From the NCBI GenBank assembly GCA_963825525.1, contig CAWGTN010000002.1, positions 32,001 through 96,000 on the forward strand: a DNA stretch of 64,000 nt, written 5' to 3'. The notes under the pieces are model-generated. The model worked only from the letters and a program-made list of their open reading frames with translations, searched no databases and was not told where the DNA came from. Position 1 is the first letter of the stretch, and each line of letters opens with the position of its first letter. The position numbers and the translations under genes are program-made. The stretch is from an uncultured Chloroflexia bacterium. GTDB taxonomy: Bacteria; Chloroflexota; Limnocylindria; QHBO01. Of this stretch, positions 9,644 through 50,900 are shown piece by piece.

Positions 9644-9979
9644 CTACATGAGGCCGACGATGTGGCCCTCCGGATCAGCGAACAGGGCGACGGTGGTCTC
9701 CGGTGCCACCTCGGTCAGCGGCATGATGATCTTGCCGCCGCGGGCCTCGACCCGACGCAGCGCCTCTGCGGCGTCATCGGCGGCAACGTAGAAGGTCACG
9801 TGGCCGGGCTGGCCCTCGGGCGCGGCCCCGAAGCCACCCGTCAGGTCGCCCTGGCGGACCATCCCGTATCCACCCGGGTTGTTGGTGTCGAGATCCCAGT
9901 CGAAGACCTCGCGATAGAACTTCTGGAGTGCGTCGCCGTCCTTGCCGACGACCTCGACGTGGACGATCTTGGCTGCCAT
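9644..9979 (-). CDS. VOC/glyoxalase family protein
   Basis: IVHVEV...FYREVFDW...FADPEGH; GAGGAG RBS. Confidence 0.9.
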   Translation of the reverse strand: MAAKIVHVEVVGKDGDALQKFYREVFDWDLDTNNPGGYGMVRQGDLTGGFGAAPEGQPGHVTFYVAADDAAEALRRVEARGGKIIMPLTEVAPETTVALFADPEGHIVGLM

Positions 9980-10027
9980 CGGGTGAGCTCCTCTCGGTTG
10001 TGGTGATGTTGTTCGTCTTCACCCATG

Positions 10028-10055
10028 CGACGTTCACACCGGCCCGATTTCGACA
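10028..10055 (-). promoter_or_regulatory. Putative ECF-sigma promoter TGTCGA-N17-CGTCG
   Basis: Same architecture as 18026-18053 upstream of yciI. Confidence 0.45.
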
Positions 10056-10128
10056 CCCGAGGTCCACGTCTATACTTGCCGCCCGCGACAGCCATGCATC
10101 GTGCTGGCGCGCCCAGCCGAGGGAACCA

Positions 10129-10875
10129 TTGACCGCCGAATACCCCTACAACGGACGGCTGAGCCGATGGGAAGAGGTTGCACCGGGCCTCGCCATCGTC
10201 GGCGTGCAGTCGCTCGAGGAGCCCTTCCCGTTCCAGCCCGGCCAGTACGCCACGCTGGGGCTGATGGGACCGGAGAAGCTCATCCAGCGGCCGATGAGCA
10301 TCTCGTCCTCGGCCGATGACCTCACCGAGTACGAATTCTTCATCCGTCGCGTCGAGGTCGGGGGCCTGACGCCGATGCTCTGGGAGCGTTCCGTCGGCGA
10401 CCCGATCAACATCAAGGGGCCGAAGGGCAAGTTCCTGCTCCAGGACGACGGCCGAACATGCCTCTTCGTCGCATCGGGAACCGGCCTGGCGCCGTTCATG
10501 AGCATGATCGACACGTTGCGTGCGCGCGGTCAGAGCCGCGACATCGTCCTGCTGCACGGAGTCAGCTACGACTACGACCTCGCCTGGCGCGAGGAGCTCT
10601 CCGAGCTGGCGAACGGCGATGGCTTCCCGCTCCGCTACGTCGGCACGGTCTCGAGGCCCAAGGGATCACCGGACTGGAAGGGGGCAACGGGCCGGGTGGA
10701 GGCCATCGTGTCCGAGCAGCTGGACGTCCAGGACCTGACGGCCGACAACACGACGATCTACCTGTGCGGCAACCCGGACATGGTGAGCGCCGTCGAGGAG
10801 ATCGCCATCGCGCGCGGCTTCGCACCGGAGCAGGTGCGCAAGGAGCTCTACTGGCCCAAGGGCCGGCAGCACTGA
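10129..10875 (+). CDS. fpr: Ferredoxin/flavodoxin-NADP reductase-like protein
   Basis: TTG start after GAGGGA; RPMSISS, ASGTGLAPF, CGNPDMV, C-terminal KELYW. Confidence 0.8.
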   Translation: MTAEYPYNGRLSRWEEVAPGLAIVGVQSLEEPFPFQPGQYATLGLMGPEKLIQRPMSISSSADDLTEYEFFIRRVEVGGLTPMLWERSVGDPINIKGPKGKFLLQDDGRTCLFVASGTGLAPFMSMIDTLRARGQSRDIVLLHGVSYDYDLAWREELSELANGDGFPLRYVGTVSRPKGSPDWKGATGRVEAIVSEQLDVQDLTADNTTIYLCGNPDMVSAVEEIAIARGFAPEQVRKELYWPKGRQH

Positions 10876-10883
10876 ACGTCGCC

Positions 10884-12450
10884 ATGACCGAACGCTTCTA
10901 CCTCACCACCGCGATCTTCTATCCGAGCGAGCGCCCGGCGCTGCACTCGATGTTCGAGGCGATCGGCGCGGATGCCATCGCCCGCTACTCGCGCCTGATG
11001 GGGCGTGACACGCGATTTCTGACCGGCATGGATGAGCACTCGGCCAACGTCGAGCGCGACGCCCGCGAGCGGGGGATCGACCCGCACGATCTCATCGACC
11101 CGTGGGCTGCCACCTGGCAGGAGACATTCGCGCGGTTCGGGATCAGCGCCGACCGGTTCATCCGGACGACGGATGCCGATCACGCGGTGGCATCGGTCGA
11201 GATGGTCCGGCGCGCACAGGCCGCCGGCGACGTCTACGAGGGCACGTATTCGGGCTGGTACTGCACCGGCTGCAACGAGTTCAAGACCGACCAGCAGCTG
11301 GTCAACGGCCGCTGCCCCGACCACCCGACGCTCGACCCGCAATGGTTGGAGGAGAACAACTACTTCTTCCGGCTCAGCGCGTACCAGCAACGGCTGGAGC
11401 AGCTCTATGCCGACAATCCGTCCTTCTGCGAGCCGGAGCACTTCCGCAACGAGGTGCTCGGCTGGCTGCGCGAAGGTCTGCGCGACTTCAGCATCAGCCG
11501 ATCCGGCACCGAGTGGGGCATCCCGTTCCCCGGCGACGAGAAGCACCGGATCTACGTGTGGTTCGACGCCCTGACGAACTACCTGACCGGCGCCGGATTC
11601 ATGAGCAACGACGGGGAGTTCGCGAAGTGGTGGCCGGCGGACCTCCACGTCATCGGCAAGAACATCACGCGCTTCCACTGCCTGTACTGGCCGGCCATGC
11701 TCATGAGCGCCGGCCTGCCCCTGCCGACCCAGGTCTTCGCGCACGGGTTCATGCTCGACCGCGGCGGGCAGCGCATGAGCAAGACGACCGGCAACACCCA
11801 GGATCCCGACGCCGTCGCCGATACGTTCGGCGTGGACGGCGTGCGCTACGTGGTCCTTCGCGAGGTGCCCTTCGATCGGGACGCGGACGTGACCTACGAC
11901 GGCTTCGTGCGGCGCTACAACGCCGACCTGGCGAACGACCTCGGAAACCTGGTGAATCGGACGGTCAGCATGAGCACGCGCTACCTCGAGGGCCGGCTTC
12001 CGCCCGTGGCCGATGCGGATCAGCCGGCCGATCTCGAGATCCGTGATGCGGTCGCCCGCACCGTTGCTGCCTACCACGCCGCCATGGACCGACGCCACCT
12101 CGACGAGGCGCTGGCAGCCCTCATGGAGCTTGCCGGCGCAGTCAATGGGTACGCGGAGGGACAGGCGCCCTGGTCGCTCAACAAAGCGGGGGAGAGCGCC
12201 CGCGTCGGCCAGGTGCTGGCCGTGATGGCCGAGGCGTGTCGGGCTCTCGGCCACCTGCTGGCGCCCTTCGCCCCGACCGGCGCCCGGGCAGATCCTCGAA
12301 CAGGTCGGGGCGGACATCCCGTACGACGACCGCGGAGCCGGCGGCCCGGGCCTCCCTGCGCTGCTCGAGTGGGGCGCATCGGCGGGCGGCCTCACCACGG
12401 GTACGGCCAGTCCGATCTTCCCGCGCATCGACACGGAGGCGGCGGGCTGA
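10884..12450 (+). CDS. metG: Methionyl-tRNA synthetase (short form) with an atypical HIGH motif; one extra base near 12288
   Basis: FYLTTAI, CxxC..CxxH knuckle, YVWFDAL, RMSKT, NDLGNLVNR; removing one G restores ...ARQILEQ...PIFPRIDTEAAG*. Confidence 0.85.
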
Positions 12451-13250
12451 GCCGAAGACGACGGCCTGAACGGCTTCCCGGCCTGGTCGACTCGCACTGT
12501 CATCTCCAGCATGCGCAGTTCGACTCCGACCGCGGTGCCGTGCTCGAACGGGCGGCCGATGCGGGCATCGAGCGCATCCTGGTCCCCGGGTGGGACATCG
12601 CATCATCCGAGCGAGCACTGGAGCTGGCGCGGCATCACGGCCCGCTGGTCCAGGCCGCGGTGGGTGTCCATCCCCACGACGCCGGGCAGATGGACGAAGC
12701 GCAATGGCGCCGGTTGGAGCAACTGGTCGCCGACCCGGGGTGCTCCGCGGTCGGCGAGATCGGCCTCGATTTTCATCGCAACCTGTCCTCGCCCGAGTCC
12801 CAGGAGGAGGCGTTCGTTCGCCAGCTGGACCTCGCCGCTGCGGCGGGGCGTCCGGTGCTCGTCCATGACCGAGAAGCTCACGCGGAAGTCACACGCGCGC
12901 TGCTGGCATGGCACGGCCGGACGCCGGGATCCGCGCGTGGGGCGCTTCATGCGTTCTCAGGCGATGCGAGCATGGCCCTCGAGCTGGTCGCGGCCGGCTA
13001 CCTGATCAGCTTCGCGTTGCCGGTCAGCTTCCGCCGGGCGGCGGGCCCGCGCGCCGCCGCGGCCGAGATCCCCTCAGGCTCCTTCCTGGTCGAGACCGAC
13101 GGCCCGTACCTCGGTCCAGACCGGGAGGCGCGCAACGAGCCGACGACGGCACTGCGCGTGGCCGCCGAGCTGGCGGAGCTGCGGGGCGTGACGCCGGATG
13201 TCATCACGCGCGAGGTTCGGGAGGCATACGACCGCTTGATCGTCCGATGA
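12447..13250 (+). CDS. tatD: TatD family deoxyribonuclease
   Basis: VDSHCH, GVHPH, VGEIGLD, VHDRE, ETDGPY; conserved position after metG; start uncertain (possibly CTG). Confidence 0.85.
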   Translation: MSRRRRPERLPGLVDSHCHLQHAQFDSDRGAVLERAADAGIERILVPGWDIASSERALELARHHGPLVQAAVGVHPHDAGQMDEAQWRRLEQLVADPGCSAVGEIGLDFHRNLSSPESQEEAFVRQLDLAAAAGRPVLVHDREAHAEVTRALLAWHGRTPGSARGALHAFSGDASMALELVAAGYLISFALPVSFRRAAGPRAAAAEIPSGSFLVETDGPYLGPDREARNEPTTALRVAAELAELRGVTPDVITREVREAYDRLIVR

Positions 13251-15841: not shown

Positions 15842-15874
15842 ACGAGCCCCGGCTTCGGCCGGGGCTCGTTGCTT
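15842..15874 (+). terminator. Intrinsic terminator of groESL
   Basis: Perfect stem ACGAGCCCCGGC-TTCG-GCCGGGGCTCGT. Confidence 0.8.
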
Positions 15875-15979
15875 GCCCGGTCAACCGAGGAAGGCATCGC
15901 GGCCGATCGGCCGACGCGCCGCATGTTGATGCGCCGTACACTGCCCGCGATCAGGCATCCAGGGGAGCAGGAGGATTCG

Positions 15980-18019
15980 ATGGCAGATCGGATGCGCGTG
16001 CGGGGACTGCTGCTGGCGCTGAGCCTCGCCGTTGCGGCGGGAATGGCACCGGGCGAGGCGCAGGCCGCGGCGCCGACGACGAAGACGGCCCAGATTGCGG
16101 CGGGCCTCGTCATTCCCTGGGATGTGGCCTTCGCCCCTGACGGGCAGATGTTCGTGACCGAGCGCCCGGGCAGGATCCGTGTGTACTCCAGCGGCGCCAT
16201 CGGCGCCAAGCTCGTGAGGACCATCTCGGTCCCCTCGGTCCGCGCCGAGGGCGAGTCGGGCCTGATGGGTATCGCGGTCGACATCGACTACGCGTCGAAT
16301 CGGTACGTCTACGTCTGTGCGTCGCGCCAGACGTCGGGCGGGTGGTTGAACCAGGTGCTCCGCTATCGCGTCGCCTCCAACGGCAGCTGGGGTGGCCTCA
16401 CCGTGATCCTGAGCGGCATGGTGGCGAGCTCGATCCACAACGGGTGTGCGCTGGAGATGGATCGCTTCGCGAAGCTGTGGGTGAGCATGGGAGATGCCGG
16501 GGTTCCGTCCCGCGCCCAGACTCGCAACAGCCTCAACGGAAAGGTTTTGCGGGTCAACCGCAACGGAAGCGTGCCCTCCGACAATCCGGTCATCTCCGGC
16601 ACGAGGAACGCCGTCTATTCGATGGGCCACCGCAACGTCCAGGGCATCGCGATCCGACCGGGCACGGACCAGGTGTACGTGTCCGACCATGGACCGGACG
16701 TCAACGACGAGATCAATCTGCTCGTGCCGGGTGGGAACTACGGATGGCCGTGTTACACGGGAGCGTCGACGCCGAACTTCACGACCGGCTGTGGGGCGGC
16801 CTCGAGCTATCGTGCACCGCTGTGGGAATCGGGTGGGTCGACCATCGCCACGTCGGGCGCGACGTTCGTGGGTGGCACCCAGTGGGGTGACCACCGGGGA
16901 CACCTGTTCGTCAGCACCCTGAAGGAGCGGGATGTCCGTCGCTTCTCGATCAACGACGCCGGCACCGCGCTCGGAGGCCCAGCGCTCCACTTCGACAACG
17001 CGTGGGGTCGACTGCGTGCCATGGTGGCGGGTCCCGGCGATCAGCTGTACGTCACGACATCAAGCGGCAGCAATGACCGGGTGATTCGCATCAGCCCGGC
17101 CGAACCCGCCGTGTCGCGGGTGGCAGGCTCGGATCGCTTCGCCACGGCGGCGGCCCTCAGCAAGAACGCCTTCCCGGGGGGTTCCAGCCTCGTCTACGTC
17201 GCCACCGGAAACGACTTCCCCGATGCCCTGGCGGGCGGGGCGGCGGCCGGGTACCTGGGGGTCCCGGTCCTGCTGGTCCAGAAGACCAGCATTCCGGCTG
17301 CCACGAGAACGGAGCTCGATCGGCTCAATCCATCAAGGATCGTCGTCCTCGGGGGTGTCGGCGTGATCGCCGAGAATGTGCGGAGCGCGCTCGTCCCGTA
17401 CGCGTCGAGCGGCGACGTCTCGCGCCTGGCGGGCGCAGACAGGTATGCGACCGCGGCGGCCATCAGCGCCGCGAACTACGCACCCGGCGTGAAGGCTGCC
17501 TTCATCGCCACCGGCAGCGGGTTCGCCGATGCGCTGGCGGGCGCGCCGGCCGCCGCCCTCAACGACTCGCCGATGCTGCTCGTCTCCCAGGCCGCCATTC
17601 CCACCTCGACCCGGGACGAGCTCATCCGCCTCAAGCCGCAGAGGATCTACGTGCTCGGCGGTGGGGCTTCGATCAGCTCGGCCGTGGCATCGGCGCTGAA
17701 TGGCTACACGGCCGGATCGGTGACTCGGCTCTCGGGAAATGATCGCTACGGCACCGGGGCGGCCATCGTTCGGCAGTTCTGGACCAAGACTCGCGGGTAC
17801 GTGGCCACGGGGGTGTCATTCGTCGACGCGCTGGCAGGCGGTGCCATCGCGGGCAAGGAGAGCGTCCCGGTCCTGCTGGTCGCCGGCACGTTCGTGCCGC
17901 TGGAGACGGGCCAGGAAGTCCTGCGCATCGGCGCGTTCCGTCTGACGGTCATCGGCGGCACGGCATCGGTATCGAGCGGCGCGGCGAATCGGCTCAAGAT
18001 CCTGATGGGCGCGCCGTAG
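15980..18019 (+). CDS. Secreted PQQ-dependent sugar dehydrogenase (GSDH beta-propeller) with three cell-wall-binding-2 repeats
   Basis: Signal peptide; PWDVAFAPDG, GHRNVQG, GGNYGWP; three (R)xAGxDRyaT / FPDALAG / ILL-like CWB2 repeats. Confidence 0.88.
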   Translation: MADRMRVRGLLLALSLAVAAGMAPGEAQAAAPTTKTAQIAAGLVIPWDVAFAPDGQMFVTERPGRIRVYSSGAIGAKLVRTISVPSVRAEGESGLMGIAVDIDYASNRYVYVCASRQTSGGWLNQVLRYRVASNGSWGGLTVILSGMVASSIHNGCALEMDRFAKLWVSMGDAGVPSRAQTRNSLNGKVLRVNRNGSVPSDNPVISGTRNAVYSMGHRNVQGIAIRPGTDQVYVSDHGPDVNDEINLLVPGGNYGWPCYTGASTPNFTTGCGAASSYRAPLWESGGSTIATSGATFVGGTQWGDHRGHLFVSTLKERDVRRFSINDAGTALGGPALHFDNAWGRLRAMVAGPGDQLYVTTSSGSNDRVIRISPAEPAVSRVAGSDRFATAAALSKNAFPGGSSLVYVATGNDFPDALAGGAAAGYLGVPVLLVQKTSIPAATRTELDRLNPSRIVVLGGVGVIAENVRSALVPYASSGDVSRLAGADRYATAAAISAANYAPGVKAAFIATGSGFADALAGAPAAALNDSPMLLVSQAAIPTSTRDELIRLKPQRIYVLGGGASISSAVASALNGYTAGSVTRLSGNDRYGTGAAIVRQFWTKTRGYVATGVSFVDALAGGAIAGKESVPVLLVAGTFVPLETGQEVLRIGAFRLTVIGGTASVSSGAANRLKILMGAP

Positions 18020-41915: not shown

Positions 41916-44900
41916 ATGTCGTCGGCTGCCCACCGTCGTACGAGCCGTCCTGCGCTCGTCGTACTGCAGATCCTGGTCTTCGTCACGTACATCTTTGGTC
42001 CGACGTCGACGCTCGCCGAGGAGCCGATCATCGAGCCGACGCCGACCGAATCGGCCGCGCCCGAAGTGACGCCGGACCCGACGCCCGACCCGACGGTCGC
42101 GCCGACCGAGGAGCCTGCAGCGACGCCTGACCCGACCGCGACCCCAGCCCCGGTCGATCCGGATCCCACCCCTGATCCGACGCCCGACCCGACCCCCGAA
42201 CCCGTCGCGCCGACCACCCCCGGCACGCGCCCCTACATCGTCACCTTCTCCCCCGGGACTGATGCATCCCGCCAGGTCGAGATCCTCTCCAACGTTGGCG
42301 TCACCGACGAGAGCGCCATCCCGCAGCTCGCCATTCGCAGCGTCCTCCTCCACGAGACCGAGTACGCCGATGAGCTGACCGCCCTGCGCGCCTACCCCGA
42401 GGTGGAGCGGGTCGAGCTCGACCGCACCCGCGCCGTGGAAGCCGCCCCGTCCGACACCTCGTTCGCCGATCAGTGGTCGCTTGGCCAGATCGGCTGGAAC
42501 GACCTGTACGGCACCGTCTCCATCGGCGGCTCATCCGTGGTCGCCATCCTTGACACCGGCGTCGATGCCGGCCACCCGGACCTCGACGGCGTCGTCCTGC
42601 CCGGGTACTCCGTCCTGGGCGGCAGCGCCCTGACTGATCCGAACGGCCACGGCACCTGGATGGCCGGCATCGTGGCGGCCGAGACCGATAACGGCACCGG
42701 CATCGCCGGAACCGCCTACGCGGGCGTCTCCGTGCTGCCCGTCACCGTCCTGGGCGCCGATGGCACCGGACAGGACAGCGACATCATCGCGGGCGTCGTG
42801 TACGCCGCCGATGCGGGCGCCGACGTCATCCTCATGAGCTTCAGCAACCCCGGCTACTCGGCTGCCCTCCAGGCGGCCATCGACTACGCCTGGTCGTCGG
42901 GCGCCGTCCTGGTTGCCGCCACCGGCAACGACGGCTCGTCCGCCGCCACCTTCCCGGCCGGCGACCGCGGCGTCATCGGCGTCGCGTCGACCGACGCCGC
43001 CGATGCACTCGCCGCGGGCTCGAACTACGGGCCGCCGCCTTCATGGCCGCCCCGGGCGAGGGGATCGTCACGACGTCGGTTGGTGGTGGCGTTGCCACCA
43101 TCTCCGGCACCTCGGCTGCCGCGGCCTCGGTCGCCGGCGCAGCTGCGCTGCTGTCGGCCAACGAGCCGTTCCTGTCGAATGGCGTCATCGTCTCGCGCCT
43201 GGCGCGCACCGCCGATCCGGCGGGGGATCCGGCTGCAGACCGGCAACGGGCGACTCAACCTGGCCCGCGCCATGGCCGATGCCTCGACCGATTCGGTTCA
43301 GCCGGCAGGCGCCGCCCCGGTTGGGGACGGGGGACCGCTGGTGGGGCCGTATGTGGCAGCGGCGCCCGCAACTGGACTACTGACCTTCGGCGGCACCGGA
43401 TCCGGCTCGGTGACCATCACCCCGAGTGCACGGGACGATCGATGCCCCCACTTCATGCGGCGGAAGTCGGATCCGGCGCTGTATCCCGACGGTGACTTCC
43501 ACATGGTTCTGCCGAATCGATCTCCACCTCCTGGCCAACGGCGCTACGATCACGTTCAGCGCCACGGCGGACGGTGGCTCGACATTTGCTGGCTGGAGCG
43601 CAGCTAGCGGAGCGAGCACTAACACCGTGCACGAATACCAGCCCGGACATCGACAAATCCATGCAGTTCGGTGTTCGGATCCGGACGGCGACACTCGCCG
43701 TCGACAGTTCAATGCTGCGGCAGTGAACGCCGTCCGGTCAACAGCGTGCCCGCGCGCACAACGTCACGAACGAGGACACCGATCCGAGTCTTCATCGTCG
43801 GGCAACTCGAATCAGATCAGCGTCAGTGATCCGGATGTGGGCGGCGGCACGATGCAGGTCACGCTGACCTGCGACAAACGGCACGCTTACCCTCGGCTCG
43901 ATGCCACCGGCCTTAGCTTGAGCTTCAGCGATCGCCAACGGTACCGGAGCCGGTGACGGCACGGCCGATCGTCACGATGACCTTCCGCGGCACTCTCGCC
44001 CAGGTCAACGCCGCACTGGCCAGCCGTCACCTACATCCCGAACGCGAACTACTACGGCTCAGCGATCACTTCACGCATCACGAGTCAACGACCGGCAAAC
44101 GGTCGGATGTGCCAAGACCGATACGGATGTCGTGGCGATCACCGTCAACTCGGTCAACGACGCGCCGTCGTTCATGAAGGGCGCCAACCAGACGGTCAAC
44201 GAGGATGCCGGGCGCGCAGAGCGTCGTCAGGCTGGGCCACGGCGATCAGCGCCGGACCGGCCAACGAGTCGAGCCAGGTCGTCGACTTCATCGTCAGCAA
44301 TGACAACAACGCGCTGTTCAGCACCCAGCCGGCGGTCGCCGCCAACGGGACGCTGACCTACACCCCGGCCGCCAATGCCTTCGGCTCGGCGACGGTCATC
44401 TGTCCAGATCCATGACAACGGCGGCACCACCAACGGCGGCGTCAACACCAGCGCCGCGCAGACCTTCACCATCACCGTCAACTCGGTCAACGACGCGCCG
44501 ACCTTCACCAAGGGCGCCAACCAGACGGTCAACGAGGATGCGGGCGCGCAGAGCGTCTCAGGCTGGGCCACGGCGATCAGCGCCGGACCGGCCAACGAGT
44601 CGGGCCAGGTCGTCGACTTCATCGTCAGCAATGACAACAACGCCCTGTTCAGCACCCAGCCGGCGGTCGCCGCCAACGGGACGCTGACCTACACCCCGGC
44701 CGCCAATGCCTACGGCTCGGCGACCGTGACCGTCCAGATCCATGACAACGGCGGCATCGCCAACGGCGGCGTCAACACCAGCGCCACGCAGACCTTCACC
44801 ATCACCGTCAACGCGGTCAACGACGCTCCGTCGTTTGTGAAGGGCGCCGATCAGACCGTCGCCGAAGATGCCGGCATCCAGGTTGTCCCGAACTGGGCGA

Positions 44901-47900
44901 CCTTCATCAGCGCCGGACCGGGCAACGAGTCGTCCCAGGTGGTGACCTTCCAGATCACCGGCAACACCAATGCTTCGCTCTTCTCGGTGCTCCCAGCCGT
45001 CTCAACAGACGGAACGTTGAGCTACACCCCGGCTGCGGACGCATCGGGCAGCGCGACGATCACCCTGAACGCCAAGGATGACGGCGGCGTCGCCAATGGC
45101 GGCGTCGACGTGAGCCCATCGCAGACATTCACGATCACGGTGGACGCCGTCAACGACGCCCCCGTCGCGGTCGATGACGACTACGCCACCGACGAGGACA
45201 CCCTGCTGAGCGTTGACGCGCCAGGCGTGCTCGGGAACGACACCGACATCGATGGCGGACCGCTGACCGCGGTGCTGGTCGCCGGCCCGTCGAATGGCTT
45301 CCTGACGCTCAACGCCGACGGCAGCTTCGACTACACCCCGAACCTCAACTTCAACGGCACGGACAGCTTCACGTATCGCGCATTCGACGGATCGGCGAAC
45401 TCCAACGTCGCCACCGTCGATATCACGGTCAATGCCGTCAACGACGCCCCGGTCTGTGTCGCCGATTCGGGCTCGACCAACGAGGACGTGGCCCTGGTTG
45501 ACAGCGTCACCTGCACCGATGTCGACAGCGGCAGCCTCAGCTACGTGGTCATCGACGACGTCGCCAACGGCATGCTGTCCTTCGCCGCGAACGGCTCGTT
45601 CACCTACACGCCTGACGCGGACTTCAACGGCACCGATGGCTTCACCTTTAGCGCATCGGACGGCCTTCTGAGCTCCAACACCGTCGCTGTACACCATCAC
45701 CGTCAACCCGGTCAACGACGCCCCCGTGGCCGATGACGACGCCTATTCGACCGATGAGGACACGAGTCTCATCGTGGCCGCGCCTGGCGTACTCGGCAAC
45801 GACACCGACATCGAAAACGACGCGCTGACGCCCGTCCTGGTGACCGGCCCGGCGGATGGCAGCCTCACGCTCAACGCGACGGCAGCTTCACCTACACGCC
45901 CGACGCCGACTTCAACGGCACGGACAGCTTCACCTACATGGCCAACGACGGCGCGCTCGACTCGAACGTCGCGACCGTCACCATCACCGTCAACCCGGTC
46001 AACGACGCCCCCGTGGCCGATGACGACGCCTATTCGACCGATGAGGACACGAGTCTCATCGTGGCCGCGCCCGGCGTCCTCGGCAACGACACCGACACCG
46101 ACGGCGACGCGCTGACCGCCGTCCTGGTGACCGGCCCGGCCAATGGCAGCCTCACGCTCAACGCGAATGGCAGCTTCACCTACACGCCCGATGCCGACTT
46201 CAACGGCACGGACAGCTTCACCTACGTTGCGAATGACGGTGACCTCGACTCCAACGTGGCAACCGTCACGCTGACGATCGACCCGGTCAACGACGCGCCG
46301 ACATGCGACGATCCGCAGAGCGACAGTACCGATGAGGACACCACCCTCAACGGCGCCGTGCTCTGCGACGACATCGACGCCAACACGCTGACCTACAGCC
46401 TGGTCGCCGACGTCAGCAACGGGAGCCTGACCTTCAATCCCGACGGCACCTTCAGCTACAGCCCGGATGCCGACTTCAACGGCGCCGACAGTTTCACCTT
46501 CCACGCCAACGACGAGGGGCTCGACTCCAACACCGCCACCTTTAACATCACCGTCAACGCGGTCAACGACGCGCCGGAGTGCGTGAGCGACAGCGGAACG
46601 ACCGATGAGGACACGCAATTGTCCGGCTCGGTGGTGTGCTCGGACGTCGACGGCGACGCGCTTACCGTCTTGCTCGACGACGGCGTTGCCAACGGCAGCC
46701 TTAGCTTCTTCGCATCGGGCAGCTTCACCTACACGCCTGACCCGAACTTCAATGGCACAGACGACTTCACCTTCCATGCCTACGACGGCTTGCTCAACTC
46801 GGGCTTGGCCAGTTACAACATCACCGTCATCGCAGTCAACGACATCCCCGACGCGGTCGATGATGTCGACGATGCCGACGAGGATGGCCCGGCCATCACC
46901 ATCGACGTGCTGGCCAACGACAGCGACGCCGACCTGAGTGACGTGCTCAGCGTCGACAGCCTCAACACCACCGGCACGCTCGGCAGCGTCACCAACAACG
47001 GCACCGACGTGACCTACGATCCGAACGGCGCGTTCGAGTCGCTGGCCGTCGGCGAGACCGCCACCGACACCTTCAGCTACACCATCACCGACGGCCAGGG
47101 TGGCTTCGACACCGCCACCGTGACGGTCACCATCCACGGCCAGAACGACATCCCCGACGCGGTCGACGATGTCGACGATGCCGACGAGGATGGCCCGGCC
47201 ATCACCATCGACGTGCTGGCCAACGACAGCGACGCCGACCTGAGTGACGTGCTCAGCGTCGACAGCCTCAACACCGGCGGCACGCTCGGCAGCGTCACCA
47301 ACAACGGCACCGACGTGACCTACGACCCGAACGGCGCGTTCGAGTCCCTGGCCGTCGGCGAGACCGCCACCGACACCTTCAGCTACACCATCACCGACGG
47401 CCAGGGTGGCTTCGACACCGCCACCGTGACGGTCACCATCCACGGCCAGAACGACATCCCCGACGCGGTCGATGATGTCGACGATGCCGACGAGGATGGC
47501 CCGGCCATCACCATCGACGTGCTGGCCAACGACAGCGACGCCGACCTGAGTGACGTGCTCAGCGTCGACAGCCTCAACACCGGCGCCACGCTCGGCAGCG
47601 TCACCAACAACGGCACCGACGTGACCTACGACCCGAACGGCGCGTTCGAGTCGCTGGCCGTCGGCGAGACCGCCACCGACACCTTCAGCTACACCATCAC
47701 CGACGGCCAGGGTGGCTTCGACACCGCCACCGTGACGGTCACCATCCACGGCCAGAACGACATCCCCGACGCGGTCGATGATGTCGACGATGCCGACGAG
47801 GATGGCCCGGCCATCACCATCGACGTGCTGGCCAACGACAGCGACGCCGACCTGAGTGACGTGCTCAGCGTCGACAGCCTCAACACCCCGGCACGCTCGG

Positions 47901-50900
47901 CAGCGTCACCAACAACGGCACCGACGTGACCTACGACCCGAACGGCGCGTTCGAGTCCCTGGCCGTCGGCGAGACCGCCACCGACACCTTCAGCTACACC
48001 ATCACCGACGGCCAGGGTGGCTTCGACACCGCCACCGTGACGGTCACCATCCACGGCCAGAACGACATCCCCGACGCGGTCGATGATGTCGACGATGCCG
48101 ACGAGGATGGCCCGGCCATCACCATCGACGTGCTGGCCAACGACAGCGACGCCGACCTGAGTGACGTGCTCAGCGTCGACAGCCTCAACACCGCGCACGC
48201 TCGGCAGCGTCACCAACAACGGCACCGACGTGACCTACGACCCGAACGGCGCGTTCGAGTCGCTGGCCGTCGGCGAGACCGCCACCGACACCTTCAGCTA
48301 CACCATCACCGACGGCCAGGGTGGCTATCGACACCGCCACCGTGACGGTCACCATCCACGGCCAGAACGACATCCCCGACGCGGTCGATGATGTCGACGA
48401 CGCCGACGAGGATGGCCCGGCCATCACCATCGACGTGCTGGCCAACGACAGCGACGCCGACCTGAGTGACGTGCTCAGCGTCGACAGCCTCAACACCACC
48501 GCCACGCTCGGCAGCGTCACCAACAACGGCACCGACGTGACCTACGACCCGAACGGCGCGTTCGAGTCGCTGGCCGTCGGCGAGACCGCCACCGACACTT
48601 CAGCTACACCATCACCGACGGCCAGGGTGGCTTCGACACCGCCACCGTGACGGTCACCATCCACGGCCAGAACGACATCCCCGACGCGGTCGATGATGTC
48701 GACGATGCCGACGAGGATGGCCCGGCCATCACCATCGACGTGCTGGCCAACGACAGCGACGCCGACCTGAGTGACGTGCTCAGCGTCGACAGCCTCAACA
48801 CCAGCGCCACGCTCGGCAGCGTCACCAACAACGGCACCGACGTGACCTACGACCCGAACGGCGCGTTCGAGTCGCTGGCCGTCGGCGAGACCGCCACCGA
48901 CACGCTTCAGCTACACCATCACCGACGGCCAGGGTGCCTTCGACACCGCCACCGTGACGGTCACCATCCACGGCCAGAACGACATCCCCGACGCGGTCGA
49001 TGATGTCGACGATGCCGACGAGGATGGCCCGGCCATCACCATCGACGTGCTGGCCAACGACAGCGACGCCGACCTGAGTGACGTGCTCAGCGTCGACAGC
49101 CTCAACACCACCGCCACGCTCGGCAGCGTCACCAACAACGGCACCGACGTGACCTACGACCCGAACGGCGCGTTCGAGTCGCTGGCCGTCGGCGAGACCG
49201 CCACCGACACCTTCAGCTACACCATCACCGACGGCCAGGGTGGCTTCGACACCGCCACCGTGACGGTCACCATCCACGGCCAGAACGACATCCCCGACGC
49301 GGTCGATGATGTCGACGATGCCGACGAGGATGGCCCGGCCATCAACATCGACGTGCTGGCCAACGACAGCGACGCCGACCTGAGTGACGTGCTCAGCGTC
49401 GACAGCCTCAACACCACCGCCACGCTCGGCAGCGTCACCAACAACGGCACCGACGTGACCTACGACCCGAACGGCGCGTTCGAGTCCCTGGCCGTCGGCG
49501 AGACCGCCACCGACACCTTCAGCTACACCATCACCGACGGCCAGGGTGGCTTCGACACCGCCACCGTGACGGTCACCATCCACGGCCAGAACGACATCCC
49601 CGACGCGGTCGATGATGTCGACGATGCCGACGAGGATGGCCCGGCCATCACATCGACGTGCTGGCCAACGACAGCGACGCCGACCTGAGTGACGTGCTCA
49701 GCGTCGACAGCCTCAACACCACCGCCACGCTCGGCAGCGTCACCAACAACGGCACCGACGTGACCTACGACCCGAACGGCGCGTTCGAGTCCCTGGCCGT
49801 CGGCGAGACCGCCACCGACACGCTTCAGCTACACCATCACCGACGGCCAGGGTGGCTTCGACACCGCCACCGTGACGGTCACCATCCACGGCCAGAACGA
49901 CATCCCCGACGCGGTCGATGATGTCGACGATGCCGACGAGGATGGCCCGGCCATCACCATCGACGTGCTGGCCAACGACAGCGACGCCGACCTGAGTGAC
50001 GTGCTCAGCGTCGACAGCCTCAACACCACCGGCACGCTCGGCAGCGTCACCAACAACGGCACCGACGTGACCTACGACCCGAACGGCGCGTTCGAGTCGC
50101 TGGCCGTCGGCGAGACCGCCACCGACACCTTCAGCTACACCATCACCGACGGCCAGGGCGGCTATGACACCGCCACCGTGACGGTCACCATCCACGGTCA
50201 GAACGATGCGCCGACTGTTCAGGCTGGAGAAGATCTTGCCGGTGGCAGGGCTCCGCTGTCAGCCTGGCCTCCGCCACCTTTGCGGACGTCGACGTCAGTG
50301 ACACGCACACCGCCACAATCGACTGGGGCGACGTGACGCCGGTCGAGGTCGGAATCGTCAACCAATCGGCTGACACCGTTGCCGGCTCGCACGTCTATGC
50401 CGACAACGGTGTCTACACTGTGACCGTCTGCGTGACTGATGACAGTGGTGCAGAGACCTGCGACTCGCTCATCGCGACCATCAACAACGTGGCGCCGGTG
50501 GCGCCAAGCACGCCAAGCCTGGTCTCGCCGGCAAACGGCGCGATCACGAACGACAACACGCCGACCTTCGATTGGACCGATTCCACCGATCCGGCCGGCG
50601 CCAACGACACGATCACGTACTCGCTCCAGGTCGACAACAACGGATGCACCTTCCCGAGCCCGGAGATCAACGAGAGCGGGCTGAGCGCATCCACATACAC
50701 GCCGGGCATCGGCATTCCGGACAGCAATGCCTACTGCTGGCGCGTGTGGGCCTCCGACGAGGACGGCGGCATCGGCGCCTACAGTGCCACCCGCACCCTC
50801 ACCGTCGACGCAACGGCACCGACCGTCACGATCACGTTCCCCGTGAACGGCGGCACGTACAGCGAGACGACCTGGATCAACGGCTGCATGCCGCTGACCG

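Follow-up and report, generated by a model that had tools for sequence, protein, structure and literature searches.

A methionyl-tRNA synthetase of Candidatus Limnocylindria with a naturally rearranged class I signature motif

The 64,000-nucleotide stretch of DNA analysed here (the window; contig CAWGTN010000002.1 of assembly GCA_963825525.1, from an uncultured Chloroflexia bacterium of soil) carries a metG gene at 10884..12450 on the forward strand, whose product is a MetRS1-type methionyl-tRNA synthetase (MetRS) that reads ALHS (A19-L20-H21-S22, encoded at 10938..10949, + strand) in place of H-x-G-H, with signature positions 1 and 3 swapped and the fourth His replaced by Ser. HxGH is one of the features that define class I synthetases, and the window MetRS has neither its first-position His nor its third-position Gly. 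We conclude that this is very probably the single functional, housekeeping MetRS of a Ca. Limnocylindria MetRS1 lineage in which HxGH was rearranged once, and that a frameshift within the gene as assembled is most likely an assembly error.

The assignment as metG draws on Pfam, NCBIfam, a PDB match, and an AlphaFold2 model. The product is approximately 522 aa long once an extra base at 12290 is disregarded, and it matches PF09334 with 324.9 bits in a Pfam search (cut-off 20.1) and the NCBIfam metG model TIGR00398 with 435.1 bits (equivalog cut-off 336.35). The only Pfam matches are to the MetRS and anticodon domains, and there is no extra catalytic domain. The top PDB match by phmmer is Brucella 4dlp (5e-127), and the nearest solved relatives are MetRS1 types, including M. 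tuberculosis 5xet/6ax8, M. smegmatis 2x1l, and Aquifex 2csx as well as 4dlp. An AlphaFold2 model built from a 65-sequence alignment has a mean pLDDT of 94.9 and a pTM of 0.93, superimposes on the M. tuberculosis MetRS with Met-AMP (6ax8) with a TMq of 0.95 and an rmsd of 1.9 Å, and places the signature motif with high pLDDT at the start of a helix spanning residues 20-38; all of the best 50 Foldseek matches listed for this model are MetRSs. The Zn knuckle (C127-x2-C130 ... C144-x2-H147; 11262..11324, +), the YVWFDAL motif (present in the translation of 10884-12284), and the anticodon-binding helix NDLGNLVNR, which contains N355 and R359 (11934..11960, +), are all intact, as an earlier reading of this DNA from its letters alone (the sequence-only reading) had stated.

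That reading also described the motif changes as in-frame substitutions in which both His residues and the Gly of HIGH are replaced, and alignments to solved MetRSs bear this out. In phmmer comparisons the query segment 'ypserpALHSmfeaigada' pairs with 'ypngkpHIGHayeliatda' of Brucella 4dlp and with 'ypnaapHVGHayeyiatda' of M. tuberculosis 5xet, in both cases with no gaps. Around the other motifs the alignments are likewise gap-free, with IGKNI (G258-K-N260-I261 at 11655..11666, +) pairing with IGKDI, and RMSKT (R297-M-S-K300-T301 at 11772..11786, +), which retains the second Lys, pairing with KMSKS. The canonical TGTDEHG reads TGMDEHS (11022..11042, +), with D50 and E51 kept, and this lies within the natural range of MetRS1 proteins.

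To judge how unusual these residues are we used a canonical set of 138 full-length MetRS1 rows, taken from the best 150 of 17,424 matches after 50% clustering. Signature position 1 is His and position 3 is Gly in 138/138 of these, as inclusion in the set required; in the window's clade position 1 is Gly, Ala, or Pro, and position 3 is His. The fourth position is more permissive, with the six commonest residues being His (93), Thr (21), Ser (9), Asn (7), Phe (5), and Tyr (2), such that the fourth His is missing in 45 of the 138; in the window's family it is Ser. The Ser of DEHS and the Thr at the fifth position of KMSKS, both found in the window's clade, are present in 28/138 and 27/138 canonical representatives, respectively, and Arg at the first KMSKS position occurs in 4/138, with the clade itself divided evenly (18 Arg, 18 Lys). 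The GKDI position is another matter, for the canonical proteins have Asp (110), Glu (21), or Gly (7) and never Asn, and Asn at this position (N260) is found in all 36 clade members examined and in no clade other than [A/P]LHS. The replaced Asp is presumably the ligand of the ribose hydroxyls, the role of D296 in the E. coli enzyme. Because loss of the fourth His, the Ser of DEHS, and the Thr and Arg of the KMSKS loop already occur in canonical MetRS1 proteins, the novelty lies in the swap of positions 1 and 3 together with the Asp to Asn change, and it is the replacement of His1 by Ala, Pro, or Gly with Gly3 to His, plus Asn in GKDI, that is exceptional. The active site had been described as rewritten, and this holds for the swap and for GKNI (each 0/138 among canonical rows) but not for the fourth His, DEHS, and KMSKS differences.

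Two further substitutions are peculiar to the window's family, E131N and R187F, at positions where 98% of the canonical rows have Glu and 88% have Arg, respectively. Elsewhere the clade keeps to the canonical pattern: residues Y13, D50, W226, A229, Y233, I261, H265, K300, N355, R359, and W430 each agree with the canonical consensus in 35 or in all 36 members, with the second Lys of KMSKS (K300) kept in 35. The positions of E. coli MetRS to which these map by alignment line the methionine pocket and read the anticodon.

The motif is not a sequencing artefact, a possibility that we rejected on finding P-[A/P]-L-H-S in every genus ortholog that covers it. Near-identical contigs from soil show no difference at 10938-10949 among the rows listed, but with 133 further rows beyond these the comparison proves nothing by itself.

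The gene has the hallmarks of purifying selection. All 16 pairwise comparisons of the window metG with its orthologs give dN/dS values between 0.074 and 0.288, and 168 of 493 columns are invariant across the 36 clade members, those of P-x-L-H-S included. It is also the only MetRS gene that we find. The window's genome (2.58 Mb in four contigs, 91.8% complete) has one full-length match to PF09334, of 312 bits, and searches of this 91.8%-complete genome with PF09334 or PF00133 revealed no second metG, with intact HIGH or otherwise. The weaker PF09334 matches correspond to other class I enzymes, namely CysRS, LeuRS, ValRS, and IleRS. Signature motifs of other synthetases in this genome, named from motif context and frame length, read HLGH (CysRS), HIGH (LeuRS and ValRS), HIGT (GluRS), HLGN (TrpRS), HFGN (TyrRS), and GVHH (IleRS). 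Among the matches listed for 24 genomes of the genus there is likewise no second MetRS-like match, the remaining ones having E values above 1e-9 and lying in frames of 450-1240 aa that belong to other class I enzymes. The gene is thus strongly constrained and, judging from its conservation, appears to do an essential job.

These observations bear on two alternatives. The first is that the protein is a repurposed MetRS paralog, a possibility already raised by the sequence-only reading. It might then activate an amino acid outside translation, with the true MetRS residing in unassembled sequence. The broken HxGH signature and a genome that is 91.8% complete leave some room for this, and MetRS-like domains have been recruited to other chemistry, as in the hydrazine synthetase PyrN (10.1101/2025.08.22.671884). 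However, besides the missing second MetRS in this genome and among the matches listed for the genus, the anticodon-recognition residues N355, R359, and W430 and those of the methionine pocket are conserved, the metG-tatD position is common to relatives, and the score exceeds the metG equivalog cut-off. The window protein also has none of the attributes of a non-translational paralog, which would be an extra domain, a degenerate KMSKS, and a coexisting true MetRS; PyrN differs in keeping HLGH and in having KFSTG and extra domains. We therefore regard repurposing as very unlikely. The second alternative is a decaying pseudogene, as loss of HIGH residues together with a frameshift might suggest. 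It is scarcely credible, and we rejected it on the grounds of the low dN/dS values, the column invariance that extends to P-x-L-H-S, and the presence of no other MetRS in the genome; the frameshift, moreover, is lacking in relatives. The preferred reading, a lineage-specific housekeeping MetRS with an altered ATP site, which had been the other of the two possibilities originally put forward, accounts for the sole copy, the motif shared throughout the genus and class, the purifying selection, and the TIGR00398 score. The window gene is a real, conserved housekeeping MetRS that is predicted to be functional, and its sole-copy status and purifying selection suggest that it charges tRNAMet.

As assembled, the gene changes reading frame. 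The interval 10884-12450 comprises 1567 nt, which is not a multiple of three; frame 1 as written becomes nonsense past residue 467 and stays open through tatD to 13250, and the conserved C-terminal tail ('PIFPRI...') lies in the next frame, ending at the TGA at 12448-12450. The sequence-only reading was right to assign this span to a MetRS but overlooked the shift. Comparison with five intact genus orthologs shows exactly one surplus base near 12286-12290 and no other indel, and contigs from Logan that are 95-99% alike, in 4/4 soil-type runs from four studies, omit one letter at 12290, this being the only indel among the differences listed. Because near-identical soil contigs from four studies are without it, the extra base (12290..12290, +) is most likely an assembly error, and we think it highly probable that the frameshift reflects a long-read type MAG and not biology.

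If the frameshift were genuine in this strain, the product would be either a MetRS with an altered C-terminus or a fusion of the MetRS core with TatD, the two parts connected by a garbled stretch of about 55 aa, and as written frame 1 is indeed stop-free from 10884 to 13250. However, at a GC content of 68-70% chance alone would be expected to leave the frame open past this point, and the restored metG frame finishes in the 'PIFPRI' tail common to the orthologs. The extra base is missing from both the aligned orthologs (5/5) and the soil contigs (4/4 runs), and the ileS gene of the same assembly also changes frame relative to an ortholog (near 2840-2866 of its locus, L119), making it a second frameshifted essential gene. 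A genuine shift is therefore unlikely. Among other genomes of the genus, metG is split in five with few contigs (G003, G008, G014, G016, and G021; 10-20 contigs each) and is lengthened but not split in one of five contigs (G020); in the fragmented G024 (340 contigs) it is in two pieces on separate contigs, and most many-contig assemblies have an intact frame of 520-525 aa.

To determine how widely the rearranged motif is distributed we compared 110 loci: the top 30 found in 41 relatives, together with the top 80 out of 578 matches. Those relatives that have names are MAGs bearing the label Chloroflexota, Ca. Limnocylindria, or Limnocylindrales; a few of the binning labels look misassigned. The motif is spanned by 107 of the loci, and 106 of these have His at position 3 with Gly, Ala, or Pro at position 1, although the loci were picked by similarity and the counts are biased accordingly. 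The most common form is GLHT (58 loci), followed by ALHS (30, counting the window), PLHS (11), GVHT (4), GLHH (2), and GLHF (1); the single exception is HIGT, at locus L107. The variant is thus conserved across the clade. Position 4 is Ser in all 41 [A/P]LHS loci and His in only the two GLHH loci of the 107, and GKNI accompanies [A/P]LHS (with IGMNI in one locus) as GKDI accompanies GLHx. One genome that is flagged as unpublished, G006, supplies one row (L016, L133) to the motif, tree, dN/dS, residue, and ileS counts, and no claim hinges on it.

The swapped rows occupy one side of a single branch nested within the canonical MetRS1 proteins, with an SH-like support of 99 (FastTree, 110 rows) and an SH-aLRT support of 97 (IQ-TREE quick, 52 rows), the latter whether or not the four motif columns are included. 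Within this branch of the unrooted tree, a (GLHF, GLHH) group is sister to a group comprising the GLHT and [A/P]LHS clades. The topology fits a single origin of the swap, and the simplest history would begin with one swap to GLHH, followed by loss of the fourth His, and then by the Gly to Ala or Pro and Asp to Asn changes in the window's family. For independent swaps elsewhere in MetRS, our view is that of the best 150 of 17,424 matches.

Several variants within these loci deserve mention. One subclade begins its signature with Pro (P-P-L-H-S; L043, L044, L046, L048, L050-L053, L058, L059, and L062) and is even farther from HxGH. The GLHH subclade (L032 and L036, in G025 and G037) has RLSRS at the KMSKS position, such that Arg replaces the second Lys, which is normally invariant. 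Elsewhere in the class there is a MetRS of a different type, approximately 600 aa long with a canonical HLGH (G035:C5:6700-8900, locus L150, and also in G031 and, probably, G027); it replaces the swapped MetRS1 in G035 and G027, and coexists with it in G031. The one match in G027 is 31% identical.

The genes flanking metG are those reported by the sequence-only reading. Upstream is an FNR-like FAD/NAD(P)-binding reductase gene of uncertain start (9928..10875, +; Pfam FAD_binding_6 and NAD_binding_1), the stop of which sits 8 nt 5' of the metG ATG, and downstream is a gene for a TatD-family hydrolase, the exact start of which is also uncertain (12450..13250, +; PF01026, 223 bits, and synteny). 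A tatD gene follows metG at 39/41 [A/P]LHS loci and 55/65 GLHx loci. The reductase gene is found 5' of metG at 40/41 [A/P]LHS loci and at 0/65 GLHx loci, and its pairing with metG arose alongside the further remodelling of the active site (Ser4 and GKNI). We know of no functional link between an FNR-like reductase and MetRS. A riboswitch or T-box upstream of metG was considered and dropped, because across the whole window no Rfam family attains its gathering score.

Two other regions of the window are unusual. Tandem ORFs at 44375-47929 (+) are rich in repeats of the bacterial Ig and cadherin-like kinds (Big_9, Cadherin_4/5), coincide with a strong excursion of GC skew and AT skew at 42-50 kb, and may together make up a single large adhesin gene that frame errors have interrupted. 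The product of 15869-18019 (+) combines a glucose/sorbosone dehydrogenase domain with three CWB2 cell-wall-binding repeats in one fusion.

Natural exchange of the first and third signature residues has a precedent, one that the sequence-only reading overlooked. IleRS2 enzymes naturally have G/AXHH (Gly, rarely Ala, at position 1) with catalysis only mildly affected, and the motif confers hyper-resistance to mupirocin (Brkic et al. 2023, PMC10485003). Crystal structures of IleRS2 show the Nε2 of the third-position His where that of the first His sits in HXGH, and the D. radiodurans IleRS2 reads ALHH (PMC10485003). Swapping positions 1 and 3 abolishes the activity of IleRS1 and of IleRS-A (PMC10485003; PMC13752280), showing that tolerance of the swap is not general.

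We propose that in one event in the lineage Gly, which later gave way to Ala or Pro, replaced the first His as Gly3 became His. By analogy with IleRS2, the imidazole of the position-3 His probably sits where that of the catalytic position-1 His would otherwise be. A small side chain at residue 19 would leave room for the H21 imidazole, H21 may stabilise the transition state of methionine activation as the first His does elsewhere, and activation of methionine by ATP would still proceed with the swapped signature. The window's family would then have drifted further, position 4 becoming Ser and the Asp of GKDI becoming Asn, where N260 may stand in for the ribose-hydroxyl-binding Asp. In the MetRS-like PyrN-C, Gly418 and Asp420 contact the ribose (10.1101/2025.08.22.671884), which by analogy would support such a role for the replaced Asp.

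A more speculative proposal, and one that we think rather doubtful, is that the swap evolved as a resistance device against a natural ATP-site or adenylate-mimicking inhibitor of MetRS in soil, much as GXHH protects IleRS2 from mupirocin. His3, Ser4, and the Asn of GKNI would then reshape the channel that runs from the signature motif to the KMSKS loop and so exclude the inhibitor. Were this so, there would be an undiscovered natural MetRS inhibitor, and the swaps in IleRS and MetRS would point to shared or repeated selection on class Ia synthetases. A literature search found no natural MetRS inhibitor tied to the clade.

The IleRS of the same bacterium is itself of the swapped kind. Its gene lies outside the window (G000:C2:221718-224100; L119 719-3100), and the product contains 'ANNPMGVHHAWGR' with GVHH, the known swapped signature of IleRS2. 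The ileS loci of relatives encode G[VI]HH in 30/30 of those fetched, and the swap is therefore present in two class Ia enzymes of the same bacteria. What the MetRS adds is that the swap has occurred a second time and independently, in a housekeeping enzyme of a whole bacterial class, such that it is not peculiar to IleRS2. The naturally occurring series GLHH, GLHT, ALHS, and PLHS also offers a gradient with which to probe the roles of the signature residues, and bears on the dispensability of the fourth His and of the ribose-binding Asp, and on possible intrinsic insensitivity to ATP-site inhibitors.

The swap has been termed 'adopted exclusively in IleRS2' (PMC10485003), and a 2026 paper continues to describe it solely for the catalytic domain of IleRS2 (PMC13752280). 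Our literature search, which covered the main texts of open journals, found no published swapped signature in a MetRS; in the literature so covered, the natural swap of the first and third residues was already known from IleRS2 only, and its presence in MetRS is new here.

Three known systems place the window enzyme in context. It has in common with canonical MetRS1 proteins (5xet/6ax8, 4dlp, 2x1l, and S. aureus 7wpi) 42-44% identity across the core, a fold matching at TMq 0.95, the Zn knuckle, the residues of the methionine pocket, the second Lys of KMSKS, and the anticodon helix, and it differs in having ALHS for HxGH, GKNI for GKDI, E131N, and R187F. With PyrN-C it has in common the MetRS fold, an altered KMSKS-type loop, and a Gly-x-Asp element on the ribose hydroxyls (10.1101/2025.08.22.671884); however, PyrN has HLGH, KFSTG, and a domain fusion and is no tRNA synthetase, whereas the window protein is a sole MetRS with its anticodon-binding residues kept. 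The closest likeness is to IleRS2, for both are class Ia enzymes of housekeeping function with a natural, clade-wide swap that combines a small residue at position 1 (here A19) with His at position 3 (here H21), and the ALHH described for IleRS2 compares with ALHS in the window. The window enzyme departs from the G/AXHH of IleRS2 in belonging to the MetRS1 family, in having Ser in place of the fourth His, which most clade members have lost (to Thr, Ser, or Phe), in a clade that allows Pro at position 1 (11 loci), in the added Asp to Asn change of GKDI, and in having no inhibitor known to be involved.
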